Source: Escherichia phage vB_EcoM-UFV13
Sequence record: NC_031103.1
Direction: 5' to 3' (one strand)
Length of the DNA stretch: 64,000 nt
How positions within the stretch are numbered: the first letter of the stretch is position 1; every line of letters starts with the position of its first letter. Shown here in pieces: positions 29,709 to 39,983 of this stretch. The notes beneath the pieces are model-generated. The model had not been told where the DNA came from. It did not search any database and worked only from the letters and a program-made list of their open reading frames with translations. The position numbers were made by a program, and so were the translations under genes.

Positions 29709-30284
29709 TTAGGAATTACGGGCTGCATTAGCAACGGCGTAAGCGTACTGAACATTAGCGTCTTTAAACGTACCTTTAGAGGTATCTATTTCTGCCTTAA
29801 AGCCGCCTTTAGTCATAACATCGGCAAATTCTTTACGGAAAGCCATTGCATCAAGACTTCTCCATGATGATTTGTGCTTGGCGAATTCAAGACCAGCGTA
29901 GTTGACAGCCTTAGCTAATTTATTATCAATAACCCATTTACCAGCTTTAGGCACAAACACCGGGCCTTTCTGTTTAGAGAATAGTTTTAAATTCCAGCGA
30001 CGAAGGTCACCGTCAGCTTTAACAAAAGCTGCGTCCAAATTACTAGCAACAACATCTTGAATATGGCCAAATTTAAGCCCATCAACTTCAATATTTAGAT
30101 CGGTACGCCAGCGAAGTCCTTCCCAAGCGAAAGCTTTAAAGTCAGAAGCTTTTGTAGCTAAGTATCGTTCAATAGGGGCTGTTTTAGGGTCAAAGCCGTT
30201 TCCTCGGTAAGTCCACTCATCTTTATTAATGCCTTTGGCCTTTTCCACAGAAGCTTCAGCGATAAATTCTTTATACGTTTTCAT
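29709..30284 (-). CDS. Internal (capsid-targeted) protein, IPIII-like
   Basis: 191 aa; N-terminal capsid targeting sequence MKTYKEFIAEA. Confidence 0.7.
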   Translation of the reverse strand: MKTYKEFIAEASVEKAKGINKDEWTYRGNGFDPKTAPIERYLATKASDFKAFAWEGLRWRTDLNIEVDGLKFGHIQDVVASNLDAAFVKADGDLRRWNLKLFSKQKGPVFVPKAGKWVIDNKLAKAVNYAGLEFAKHKSSWRSLDAMAFRKEFADVMTKGGFKAEIDTSKGTFKDANVQYAYAVANAARNS

Positions 30285-30298
30285 GTGTTTCCTTTATT

Positions 30299-30613
30299 TT
30301 ATTCTTTAGGGAAGTTTTTAGAATATGCATCATAAAGCTTATTTCCAATACGGCGGAAAACTCTAGCCGCAAAACGATTTTCAGGGTTTTTAATCATGAT
30401 TTGCATCATGTAAGTTCCTGCATCCGAAAGAGCTTCTTCATAGTACCCATTAATTTCTTTAAGAGTCCTACGTTTACCACCAGGACCATCAACAGTAATT
30501 TTCCATTTACCTGTAGAAGTGCGGCTCGGTGGTTCAACTTGTTCAATCCAAATATAACCGCCTTCAACGCGTTGTCCGGCGGATTCTGCAATAAATTCTT
30601 TATATGTTTTCAT
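30299..30613 (-). CDS. Internal (capsid-targeted) protein, IPII-like
   Basis: 104 aa; N-terminus MKTYKEFIAES; early promoter upstream. Confidence 0.7.
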   Translation of the reverse strand: MKTYKEFIAESAGQRVEGGYIWIEQVEPPSRTSTGKWKITVDGPGGKRRTLKEINGYYEEALSDAGTYMMQIMIKNPENRFAARVFRRIGNKLYDAYSKNFPKE

Positions 30614-30641
30614 TTTTGTTTCCTTGTTTGTTTTGATAGAG

Positions 30642-30675
30642 TAATTATACCATATTAATACTTAAGCGTAAACAA
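30642..30675 (-). promoter_or_regulatory. T4-type early promoter
   Basis: GTTTAC, 15-nt spacer, TGGTATAAT on the minus strand. Confidence 0.7.
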
Positions 30676-30679
30676 TTTA

Positions 30680-30934
30680 AGCTTTACCGCCAGAAATAAT
30701 TCCGAAGTTGTTAAAATCGTATCCAATATCGTCAACATCTACTTTAGTACTTGCTACAACATAAGCAATTTCACTACGTTTTGCATAGGTGTTGATTTCT
30801 TTACCATCGCCACCTAAGAAAGTACCCATTACGTTTTAATGAGCCAAAGTCTTCCGCATCACCAATGAAAGCTTTAACTTTAAATTTAGGACCTTTGGCA
30901 TCTGCTTCAACGATAAATTCTTGATACATTTTCA
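30680..30934 (-). pseudogene. Internal-protein paralog interrupted by a frameshift
   Basis: Reading starts MKMYQEFIVEADAKGPKFKVKAFIGDAEDFGS, then the frame is lost near 30820-30835 and continues in another frame to GTFLGGDGKEINTYAK... Confidence 0.45.
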
Positions 30935-30941
30935 TTTTTCC

Positions 30942-31355
30942 TTAGTAAATTGATTTACCATAGTATTTGTACCAAGTCGGACGTTGAGCAATTTTTTCAT
31001 CTAAGCGTGCTTGACTTATCGCAATGGACGCTTCAGACGGGACGTAATTATTACGAAATTCTACAGGAATGTCGGAAATATCCTGGACTGTCGTGTCCTT
31101 GATTTTGAAACCACGTTTCAAACATTCAGCGATTAGCTCGATTTGACGTAAACGTAAAAATTCGAGTTTGTCGTAAAAGAATGTTACGTGACCTGTGCCT
31201 AAGATAAATGTTGGAGAGATTTTAAAATCCTTTACACGTTTACCGTTTTGAACATGTTTACGGACTGCACCAAATACGCGTGGTAATTCACGATACTCAG
31301 CCATAAGATGTTGGTCGGTCAGTTCAGAAACAAGTGTTAAATTGATACGAGTCAT
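30942..31355 (-). CDS. denV: Endonuclease V (pyrimidine dimer DNA glycosylase)
   Basis: [12 protein letters not shown]...[10 protein letters not shown] matches T4 DenV as I recall it; about 138 aa. Confidence 0.9.
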
Positions 31356-31379
31356 AATTTCCTCCAAGTAGTTGATGAA

Positions 31380-31414
31380 TGTATAGTATCAAAACCCTTG
31401 GAGGAAGTAAACAC
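31380..31414 (-). promoter_or_regulatory. T4-type early promoter
   Basis: GTTTAC, 15-nt spacer, TGATACTATAC on the minus strand upstream of denV. Confidence 0.6.
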
Positions 31415-31695
31415 TATTTTTCTGAAGCGCCTGAAATATATTTTTCAAGACGTTGTTTCATCAGCGAGCCGTTCTTAGCGATTTCTTCTGGTTTATCGCA
31501 CATACGCAACAAGGCTTCAAGCTTAACGATATCACTGGTGCGCTCAAATTTGCGAGTATCTATCTTACTAGCAAGTTCAGAAATACGTGCTAATAGACTT
31601 TCAGCTTCAACCAAAGCTGCACCTAGCTTAGTTGCAAATGTGTCGGTAGCTTCGTTAAGAATAGATTCTGATAAAAATTCACTATATGTTTTCAT
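31414..31695 (-). CDS. Internal (capsid-targeted) protein
   Basis: Start at [11 protein letters not shown], overlapping the e stop (ATGA); about 93 aa. Confidence 0.6.
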
Positions 31696-32180
31696 ATATA
31701 CGCTTTCCAAGTTCCTGTTTTAAATGTTGAGATTACGCGTTTCGCGCGATTAGGTGTCTGACGATACCATTTAGATTGGGCTAGATTTACTGCCGCTTCG
31801 TCCCAACGTTTTTGTTGAAGCATACGCAAAGAATTAGTAAATCCTGCCACACCGGTTTCTCCCATTTGGAAAACCATATTAATCAATGCACAGCGACGAA
31901 CAGCATCAAGAGAATCATAAACTGGTTTTAATTTAGCATTTCTCAGAATTCCGCGAACAGCAGCATCAACATCCTGATTAAAAAGTTTTTCAGCCTCATC
32001 TTTTGTAATTACACCATTGCAATTACGCCCAATAGCTTTATCTAATTCAGATTTAGCAACACTTAGTGATGGACTTTTAGTAAGCAAATGACCGATGCCA
32101 ATAGTGTAATAGCCTTCTGTGTCTTTATAGATTTTAAGTCTAAGACCTTCATCTATACGTAACATTTCAAATATATTCAT
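31692..32180 (-). CDS. e: Lysozyme (endolysin)
   Basis: [33 protein letters not shown] matches T4 lysozyme as I recall it. Confidence 0.95.
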
Positions 32181-32193
32181 AATACCTCCTAAG

Positions 32194-38475: not shown

Positions 38476-38480
38476 AAATT

Positions 38481-38567
38481 TGGTGCGAGAAGTGGGACTC
38501 GAACCCACAAGGAAATCATTCCGCAGCATTTTAAGTGCTGTGCCTTTACCAATTTGACCATTCTCGC
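38481..38567 (-). tRNA. tRNA-Leu (anticodon TAA), long variable arm
   Basis: Acceptor GCGAGAA/TTCTCGC, anticodon stem CAGCA/TGCTG, loop CTTAAAA, encoded CCA. Confidence 0.8.
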
Positions 38568-38568
38568 G

Positions 38569-38641
38569 CTGGGAATAAAGGACTCGAACCTTTGCATCCT
38601 GGAATCAAAATCCAGTGCCTTACCAACTTGGCTAATTCCCA
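38569..38641 (-). tRNA. tRNA-Gln (anticodon TTG)
   Basis: Acceptor TGGGAAT/ATTCCCA, anticodon stem CTGGA/TCCAG, loop TTTTGAT; CCA not encoded. Confidence 0.7.
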
Positions 38642-38738
38642 ATTATTAACAAAGGCTCTCAAACAAGAACCCTTGATGATAGAGGGTATTAATCAGTGCG
38701 GTATGAGTTAATAATAACAAATAATTCTTAAAGCATAT

Positions 38739-39026
38739 TTACCATTTATGATAATACATATTTACGATGCATTCAAGACCCAAAGGATTCTTGAAAATAT
38801 CATATTCAAGAGGACCTTTTTCCGTTTCAATAAAGAAATCAAAATTTACTGTATTAAATTTACGGTCTTCCTTCACTAATTTAACTTGAGAAGATGAACG
38901 ATCAATGTAAACCTTTTCAACTTCAAAACATGTTAAAATGCCATAATCATCAATCAAGGCTTTAGCTGCTTCTTGATCATATTTATATCCATTTTCAATG
39001 GATGATACTTTCGCATAAAGAATCAT
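38739..39026 (-). CDS. Hypothetical protein
   Basis: 95-aa ORF upstream of the tRNA cluster. Confidence 0.45.
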   Translation of the reverse strand: MILYAKVSSIENGYKYDQEAAKALIDDYGILTCFEVEKVYIDRSSSQVKLVKEDRKFNTVNFDFFIETEKGPLEYDIFKNPLGLECIVNMYYHKW

Positions 39027-39028
39027 TA

Positions 39029-39433
39029 TTAACCTTTATCAACAATAGTATGTGTATGGGCATTTACGATTTGCCACCAGTCAAAACTATCGCCAAATCG
39101 TTTTGATTTATTGTCTTCAATAATTTGGCGTAATTCATCTTCTGTTTCAGCATACGCAATCAAATCATCATATCCACCGCAAGGATAGTAATTATCGCCT
39201 GCGAACAAAAGAAAATTTACTTTAGATGGGTCTACATAATAATGCTCTTTAGGATATTTAGTTCCTTTCCAATCAGTTACTTCAACATAACGATAAGAAA
39301 ATCCATTTTTACTTTCAACCCAACTCCACGCTTCAAAAGGAGTATTAAAAACTCTATCAGGTATTAAATTACCTTCAAAATGAGAAGGATTTGCATAATC
39401 CCCAGCATAAACATAATATTCGTTAATATTCAT
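39029..39433 (-). CDS. Hypothetical protein
   Basis: 134-aa Tyr/Trp-rich ORF. Confidence 0.5.
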   Translation of the reverse strand: MNINEYYVYAGDYANPSHFEGNLIPDRVFNTPFEAWSWVESKNGFSYRYVEVTDWKGTKYPKEHYYVDPSKVNFLLFAGDNYYPCGGYDDLIAYAETEDELRQIIEDNKSKRFGDSFDWWQIVNAHTHTIVDKG

Positions 39434-39619
39434 TTATTCACCTTTAGAAATTTTATCCATAACAATAGCGATTAAACCAATTAAAAATGCTACTACAAGT
39501 GAAAAAACATTTTCTGCTGTAGTCAATAATCCGCATATAAATCCAACAAACATTGAAAAACTAAAAGCGGAAGCAGAAATTGCAATAGCAACATTTCGAA
39601 TTAATTCACAACGTTTCAT
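39434..39619 (-). CDS. Small membrane protein
   Basis: 61 aa with two hydrophobic helices; early promoter upstream. Confidence 0.45.
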   Translation of the reverse strand: MKRCELIRNVAIAISASAFSFSMFVGFICGLLTTAENVFSLVVAFLIGLIAIVMDKISKGE

Positions 39620-39643
39620 TTTATTCTCCTCGGTAGTTGATAG

Positions 39644-39679
39644 GGTAATAGTATCACAACTAAAACCCTATGTAAACAA
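39644..39679 (-). promoter_or_regulatory. T4-type early promoter
   Basis: GTTTAC ... TGATACTATTAC on the minus strand with upstream AAAGTTGTTTAC. Confidence 0.6.
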
Positions 39680-39695
39680 CTTTGTGAAATATTTA

Positions 39696-39983
39696 TTACA
39701 AAAGATTTTTAGCAATAATCTTGAGATGTGCCGCAGAAATGTGTTTAGCTTTAAACAACGCAGTTTCTTCAGCAGGAGAGATAATGATTGTAGCACCATC
39801 CTTTTTAGCAGACCACCCATCACCTAGGTAAACAGTACCTTTGATTTCTTCGCCATCAACCAAACTAATCATTGGTTTACCTTCTCGTCCTTTATTTGCT
39901 TTAATAACTTCAGAAGTAAGAGTAGCTTCAGTAATAGTAGAAACCGGGGTAGTTGTAGAAGTAAATTCTTTGAAAGTTTTCAT
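39696..39983 (-). CDS. Internal (capsid-targeted) protein, IPI-like by position and size
   Basis: 95 aa; N-terminus MKTFKEFTSTTT...ITEA; immediately downstream of 57B. Confidence 0.55.
   Translation of the reverse strand: MKTFKEFTSTTTPVSTITEATLTSEVIKANKGREGKPMISLVDGEEIKGTVYLGDGWSAKKDGATIIISPAEETALFKAKHISAAHLKIIAKNLL

Follow-up and report, generated by a model that had tools for sequence, protein, structure and literature searches.

A 64-kb stretch of the genome of Escherichia phage vB_EcoM-UFV13 (NC_031103.1), referred to here as the window, very probably carries a T4-like phage's set of internal proteins (Ips) that are packaged in the head, processed by the prohead protease gp21, and injected to inhibit type IV restriction, a set varied by cassette exchange. 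Seven genes with the capsid targeting leader of this class were found and labeled W1 to W7 by ascending coordinate; the complement consists of six intact genes and one inactivated gene across three small variable loci. The genome to which the window belongs is that of a Tequatrovirus (T4-like) phage, and the window ends inside the terminase gene 17, at T4 coordinate 98459. The region containing the seven genes matched hundreds of Tequatrovirus genomes, with the closest matches to an 11.6-kb query showing 94 to 96% identity at 82 to 92% coverage and none being identical. Every gene between 28 and 42 kb is on the minus strand, including the lysozyme gene e, denV, a cluster of ten tRNA genes, 57B, 57A, and gene 1, and the genes, promoters, and hairpins given below with window coordinates are all on that strand.

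A preliminary description of the window had listed seven genes beginning with the leader. The six-frame translation was scanned with the regular expression MK.[YF].[EQ]F, and exactly seven matches were obtained, each coinciding with the ATG of a minus-strand open reading frame (ORF). These were the seven genes listed, and their coordinates agreed for six, the ATG of W3 being at 30935 rather than 30934. The chance expectation for the motif was 0.07 (analytic, from six-frame residue frequencies), and in 200 simulations under a second-order Markov model the motif occurred 0.09 times on average and at most twice. Looser leader patterns yielded no additional candidates in the 64 kb. Outside their orthologs, the W proteins resembled each other and the T4 Ips in the first 10 to 20 residues only, and the 32 nt encoding the leader were 69 to 88% identical among six otherwise unrelated genes. 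PHROG labels of internal head or virion protein were returned for W1, W3, W4, and W7, while scans of all seven against Pfam and NCBIfam produced a single family, IPI_T4 (W7), with none for the other six.

The leaders were then compared with the known determinants. Mutagenesis of IpIII assigned targeting chiefly to residues 4 and 7 and processing to residues 8 and 10, and gp21 is known to cleave after the Glu of the motif L/I-x-E (PMC9026906). All seven proteins start with Met-Lys and have Tyr or Phe at position 4 and Phe at position 7. The motif [IL]-x-E was located at residues 8 to 10 in W1 to W6, with a second cleavage-type site at residues 13 to 15 in W4 and W6, and as ITE at residues 17 to 19 in W7. 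The N-terminal alignment that had been proposed as a check for prohead protease sites therefore showed such a site in 7/7 leaders. The predicted mature forms are all 8 to 20 kDa, and the mature isoelectric point (pI) was calculated at 9.0 to 9.6 for W1, W2, W5, W6, and W7, similar to T4 IpII and IpIII.

Two of the genes have direct counterparts in T4. W1 (29709..30284, 191 aa) is an ipIII ortholog with 92% identity to T4 IpIII over its full length and matched phrog_5341, "internal virion protein" (E 1.6e-116). The predicted cut after E10 would leave a 181-aa mature protein with a pI of 9.6. The gene begins 14 nt past the ip10 stop, and a PDB sequence search with W1 gave no match. W7 (39696..39983, 95 aa) is ipI, with 99% identity to T4 IpI and a mature form, IPI*, corresponding to residues 20 to 95. 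It matched Pfam IPI_T4 (PF11634) over exactly these residues (E 2e-53; 178.7 bits against a cutoff of 25), and the PDB entry 2JUB, "Internal protein I," which is the solved mature IPI*, aligned to the same residues, directly after ITE19. W7 is thus the ortholog of IpI and W1 that of IpIII, and by this orthology to the T4 proteins their targets are most likely known.

The next two genes belong to named Ip families other than those of T4. W2 (30299..30613, 104 aa) is ip10, with 98% identity to the gene of that name in phage PP01; it was present in 188 phage records and matched phrog_3966. Its mature form is predicted to be 94 aa with a pI of 9.6 and to start SAGQR. An early (sigma-70-type) promoter, TTTACG-17 nt-TATAAT, was found 5' of ip10 (30644..30672), with 10/12 consensus positions and a TG extension. 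W4 (31414..31695, 93 aa) is an Ip5-like internal head protein by its match to phrog_3499, "internal head protein" (E 1e-46), with about 48 to 51% identity to ip5 of PP01 and T2, and 231 records contained it at ≥95% identity. The W4 start codon and the stop codon of gene e share bases in the sequence ATGA (31692 to 31695), an overlap suggestive of translational coupling with a late gene; in T4, 88 nt separate e from the start of ipIII. Two matches to the T4 late-promoter motif TATAAATA were located 5' of gene e, at 32201 and 32214.

W3 (30677..30935) is a frameshifted internal-head-protein gene, as established by alignment with the intact alleles of phages Phaginator and Bas45. The gene had been called frameshifted in the preliminary description, which placed it at 30680 to 30934, and relative to the intact alleles 2 nt (TT) were indeed missing between 30823 and 30822. 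The deletion divides the gene into 30801 to 30935 (44 aa) and 30677 to 30829, while the intact form has 86 aa. The repaired protein matched phrog_2667, "internal head protein," and the gene was present in 216 records. Five alleles were aligned (window, Phaginator, FL44, Pu-Krd-SF7, and Nami). That of Phaginator was intact, and FL44 and Pu-Krd-SF7 shared a 2-nt insertion at another site. In Nami (1861 to 2121 of the fetched locus), ATT replaces the first ATG, and the annotated start is an internal Met, with the loss of the first two leader residues. Three independent lesions appear to point to relaxed selection on W3 in several lineages. A programmed frameshift was considered and rejected: no slippery sequence was seen on reading the site, and other phages have different lesions. 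The frameshift in the window could be due to a sequencing error; there is no N near the site.

The remaining two genes, W5 and W6, lie apart from the others and look like unrecognized internal proteins at a third locus, having the sequence features of the class. W5 (36262..36828) encodes a 188-aa protein with the leader MKTYAEFLTE followed by A at the predicted cut, giving a predicted mature form of 178 aa with a pI of 9.5 and the N terminus AAKLPSEADLTK. W6 (36947..37420) encodes a 157-aa protein with the leader MKSYAQFLNE-AVLNE-A, the hyphens marking the two possible cuts, and its mature form is predicted to have 142 to 147 aa, a pI of 9.5, and the N terminus AVLNEASSTEIQAVAK or ASSTEIQAVAK, depending on the site cut. 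Together they form a 1.2-kb insertion relative to T4, between T4 positions 70838 and 70825, in the interval from e.8 to the rnaC/rnaD/tRNA unit. The loci described for Ips extend from e to denV/vs.8 and from 57B to trna.4; W1 to W4 and W7 lie inside them, and W5 and W6 are inserted between e.8 and rnaC. Location in a described locus would be a habit of the Ip family rather than a strict requirement. An exact late-promoter motif, TATAAATA, is found about 37 nt 5' of the W6 ATG (37457..37464). Terminator-like hairpins bracket each of the two genes: one 3' of W5 (36235..36253), one between W6 and W5 (36916..36939), and one 5' of W6 (37471..37494), the last corresponding to the single T4 hairpin at T4 70825 to 70859. 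The two hairpins bracketing W6 are direct repeats with 87% identity over 39 nt (family D7).

Both proteins matched phrog_2280, for which the PHROG label is function unknown, and W5 has no T4 counterpart. W5 was found in 163 phage records, 162 of them at ≥95% identity, and its relatives were all close (≥89% identity); W6 was found in 510 records. Genomes carrying W5 or W6 numbered in the hundreds and belonged to both Tequatrovirus and Mosigvirus. Relatives of W6 in a large protein collection were all from T4-like phages, and none had a Pfam domain. The more divergent ones, from Klebsiella and Yersinia phages, had 35 to 40% overall identity and still started with MKFKEFLAE or MLEYSEFLKE. The family appeared modular, with a conserved N-terminal domain (about residues 15 to 75) joined to unrelated C-terminal parts in the Klebsiella and Yersinia phages, and the W6 homolog P0013 resembles a chimera. 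Paralogy of W5 and W6 is not claimed, since both matched phrog_2280 over their full length, yet their pairwise similarity was confined to the leader; neither pairwise BLAST nor comparison via distant W6 homologs supported homology beyond it. AlphaFold2 models were of moderate quality for W6 (predicted local distance difference test [pLDDT] score, 73) and poor for W5 (pLDDT, 61), and both predicted a leader, a small helical domain, a low-confidence Pro/Lys-rich linker, and a long helical hairpin. A PDB sequence search with W5 gave no match, and an assignment of W5 as cytochrome b562 was rejected because the match was below threshold (17.7 bits against a cutoff of 30).

Overall, there is about an even chance that W5 and W6 are packaged, injected Ips that define a third locus at e.8-rnaC/tRNA and inhibit defenses not yet tied to any Ip. 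Several points weigh against this. W5 is without an exact late promoter, having only GATAAATA. Both genes are outside the two Ip loci of the literature and hypothetical in every record sampled, including 40/40 matches listed for each protein. Foldseek searches with the W6 model gave no functional clue in either PDB (best E, 1.8) or BFVD, where the matches were limited to its own family and, weakly, a protein of Serratia phage PS2. Virion proteomics or expression data for W5 and W6 homologs were not found in the literature, nor were virion-presence data for homologs of W2 to W6 in general. W5 and W6 were not mentioned as Ips in the literature covered, which describes two Ip loci and did not include the original 1994 description.

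These same points, namely the hypothetical annotations, a site not described as an Ip locus, and the missing exact promoter at W5, lend some weight to the alternative that W5 and W6 are cytoplasmic accessory proteins whose leader is a passenger, recombined together with a ribosome-binding site (RBS)-leader module, in which case the true Ip count would be five (four intact). The absence of any similarity between W5 and known Ips past the first ∼11 residues is also in its favor, but the known Ips likewise have only the leader in common (PMC12373910). Furthermore, W5 and W6 retain all four mapped determinant positions, their mature forms are basic like T4 IpII and IpIII, and W6 has the exact TATAAATA promoter. 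The W6 leader also persists in homologs at 35 to 40% overall identity, which speaks against a neutral passenger, as this would have decayed. The cytoplasmic alternative was therefore considered rather unlikely.

The functional interpretation of the whole set draws on published work with T4. The preliminary description had named T4 IPI as an anti-restriction factor, and this agrees with the literature, in which IPI* inhibits the GmrSD enzyme of Escherichia coli CT596 (PMC3012670). Ip1, Ip2, and Ip3 each inhibit one distinct GmrSD enzyme; Ip2 and Ip3 act on two other GmrSD-type systems with no cross-protection, and the authors proposed that all cassettes of "the two Ip loci" target GmrSD variants (PMC12373910). 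Specifically, T4 IpIII and IpII inhibit GmrS1/GmrSD2 of ECOR17 and GmrSD/BrxU of ECOR21, respectively (Silas et al. 2025). T4 without ipIII cannot infect ECOR17, and leaderless IpIII in the host cytoplasm restores infection. In addition, the ipI locus of Bas37 encodes a leader-bearing inhibitor of McrBC (preprint 10.1101/2025.11.20.689424).

On this basis, the ∼10-residue capsid targeting sequence would dock each protein onto the prohead scaffolding core, and gp21 would cut after the Glu of [IL]-x-E (E10, or E19 in IpI). The mature protein would remain in the head, in up to several hundred copies, and be ejected with the DNA into the cell, where it would act ahead of any phage gene expression. 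The best-documented role for such a protein is stoichiometric inhibition of type IV restriction enzymes attacking glucosyl-hydroxymethylcytosine DNA. The T4 orthologs are known to be packaged, cleaved, and injected and to inhibit variants of GmrSD. For the five non-T4 proteins, we infer that they are likewise packaged, cleaved, and injected, and Ip10, W4, W5, and W6 may inhibit further type IV enzymes or additional first-response defenses. Some observations fit less well with a set of this kind. With a pI of about 6.3 to 6.4, W3 and W4 are close to neutral, while the T4 Ips are basic proteins of roughly 8 to 20 kDa. The broken W3 contributes nothing, unless the frameshift arose by sequencing error. 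The genes for gp21 and gp22 lie outside the window, about 5 kb beyond its end in gene 17; genes 21 and 22 are core genes of T4-related phages (PMC9026906).

A different view is that these proteins serve mainly as structural components, with abundant basic head proteins neutralizing the charge of the DNA and aiding core and head assembly, and anti-defense activity being the exception. A T4 head contains about 1,000 Ip molecules, whose lysines touch the phosphates of the DNA (PMC3012670); in IpIII mutants, heads assemble more slowly, the burst size is lower, and polyheads are more frequent (PMC9026906); and five of the seven mature proteins described here are basic. However, W3 and W4 are not, the phage can do without the ip genes on laboratory hosts, a specific GmrSD target exists for each of the three T4 Ips, and the rescue of infection was obtained with IpIII expressed without its leader in the host cytoplasm. 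Unrelated folds also take one another's place at a given locus, and W3 was inactivated in three independent ways across phages, both of which fit host-dependent selection rather than a fixed structural need. A mainly structural role therefore appeared quite improbable, and inhibition of restriction remains the preferred interpretation.

The arrangement of the genes was compared with that in T4, whose record contains three ip genes in the order e-ipIII-ipII-denV-vs.8, with ipI between 57B and trna.4. In the window, the order is e-W4-denV-W3-ip10-ipIII-vs.8, with ipI at its usual place, and no ipII ortholog was found in the window. The earlier claim that both copy number and the placement of denV differ from T4 was thus correct, denV being located between W4 and W3. 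The block from e to ipIII was collinear at 97 to 100% coverage in about ten other phages, including IME340, Bas45 PaulHMueller, p000v, phi25-307, and the Mosigvirus Bas46 ChristianSchoenbein, and was found in 63 records at ≥80% coverage; the W5-W6 pair was collinear in 126 records. The arrangement is therefore not special to the UFV13 genome. Leader-bearing ORFs in the fetched loci numbered 3 in T4, 4 in PP01, 5 in Nami, and 6 in both Phaginator and Bas45, and IME340 has seven by annotation (two at the ipI locus, W5, W4, W3, ip10, and ipIII). That gene number, gene order, and frameshift are assembly or sequencing artifacts of a poor or chimeric genome deserves hardly any credence, for although the window has 21 N bases, four of them within W6, and the W3 lesion is a 2-nt indel, the e-W4-denV-W3-ip10-ipIII block recurs in the independently sequenced IME340, Bas45, Bas46, p000v, and phi25-307, the W5-W6 pair recurs as stated, and Ns are absent near the W3 lesion, so that only the frameshift itself could be an error.

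The preliminary description had also suggested a fast-evolving arsenal of injected effectors. The notion of an injected anti-restriction arsenal matches published work, but rapid sequence change does not, as every cassette recurred, at ≥95% identity, in some 100 to 335 further phage records. Judging from these comparisons, the variation is one of cassette presence, absence, and order and not of fast point evolution. Copies of Ip10 and W5 about 97% identical to those of the window were observed in two Mosigvirus phages, RB69 (AY303349.1, 63807 to 64119 and 73431 to 73990) and ChristianSchoenbein, and in the RB69 record each of the two is split into two pieces. The former points to recent cassette exchange between genera and the latter to further decay. 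Exchange of Ip cassettes was proposed by Repoila in 1994, as cited in PMC4122927, and also in the PeSL papers (PMC4122927), and the flanking repeats seen here (leader, promoter, and terminator) offer homology of the type through which such shuffling has been proposed to occur. Under this mechanism, shared leader/RBS DNA together with promoter and terminator repeats would provide homology for the gain, loss, and reordering of genes, and the position of denV between ip genes would be a consequence.

Other features of the region were also recorded. A 54-nt early-promoter segment is present on both sides of ipI, 3' of the gene at 39637..39690 (TTTACA-17 nt-TACTAT) and 5' of it at 40003..40056, the two being direct repeats with 78% identity (family D3). 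The denV gene (30942..31355) is outside the Ip set; its translation starts MTRINLTL, and it is annotated as endonuclease V in matching records. Identity to T4 denV was 79% at the DNA level (window 30946 to 31391) versus 91 to 96% for the flanking genes, and denV is, by this measure, a divergent allele or mosaic segment within the Ip locus. The 21 N bases fall into five tight clusters (18628 to 18666, 26093 to 26100, 33224 to 33589, 37205 to 37593, and 49763 to 49886), which may mark positions that vary within a mixed population or may have been masked deliberately. The four within W6 are all at third positions of four-fold degenerate codons, and the amino acids are therefore still determined. 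The tRNA cluster (37811 to 38641) contains ten genes (Arg, Asn, Tyr, Met, Thr, Ser, Pro, Gly, Leu, and Gln) and no segB homing endonuclease, while that of T4 contains eight, including Ile but not Asn, Tyr, or Met, and is interrupted by segB. The segment 37462 to 37856 showed 89.7% identity to the T4 region holding the small stable RNAs rnaC and rnaD. An Rfam scan of 36000 to 39000 returned tRNAs only, with no curated family match for rnaC or rnaD.

The polymorphism of the Ip loci was reportedly described in 1994. The phenomenon has been known since then and was functionally explained by 2025, and the interpretation given for the window is right but established. The only addition, a modest one, is W5 and W6 as candidate internal proteins at a third locus, annotated as hypothetical wherever sampled. 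No new principle emerges, and the value lies in the inventory of IpI, IpIII, Ip10, an Ip5-like protein, a single inactive gene, and two candidates without annotation, the last of which illustrate that a leader scan recovers candidates overlooked by annotation pipelines. Which wild E. coli strains are open to a T4-like phage depends in part on its Ip set, each Ip disarming one type IV restriction variant, so that a catalogue of Ips aids the prediction of host range and the choice of phages for therapy. If W5 and W6 prove to be true Ips, they would be ready probes for new defense systems, as Ip2 and Ip3 were in 2025.

Among known systems, the closest to W7 is T4 IPI/IPI*, with 99% identity, a shared location between 57B and trna.4, the same 19-residue leader with its terminal ITE, and the 2JUB match; the difference is one conservative substitution (V to I) and nothing more. 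T4 IpIII is the closest to W1, a 92% ortholog with the same 10-residue type of leader, for which equal packaging and cleavage would be expected, but the W1 gene is 3' of denV and ip10, whereas T4 ipIII directly follows e. Polymorphic Ip families of the T-even phages (Ip4 to Ip10 and others) were reportedly described by Repoila et al. in 1994. W2, W3, and W4 resemble these in being unrelated small proteins with only the leader in common, encoded in the e-to-vs.8 locus with conserved regulatory flanks. W5 and W6 have the same leader but differ in occupying the third site, e.8-rnaC/tRNA cluster, and in having no Ip annotation in any sampled record. Bas37_0260 (HIDEN-SEQ preprint, 2025) is a non-T4 Ip cassette directed against a non-GmrSD type IV enzyme, which is the kind of role proposed here for Ip10, W4, W5, and W6; it lies at the ipI locus, which is occupied here by the T4-type ipI. 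More distant parallels are the inner-body or ejection proteins of phiKZ and SPN3US, which are also packed in the head, often cut by a prohead protease after Glu, and delivered before gene expression. DarA and DarB of phage P1 are virion-delivered anti-restriction proteins that work alike. The proteins of P1, phiKZ, and SPN3US nevertheless have no sequence relationship to those of the window and use other targeting signals and virion locations.

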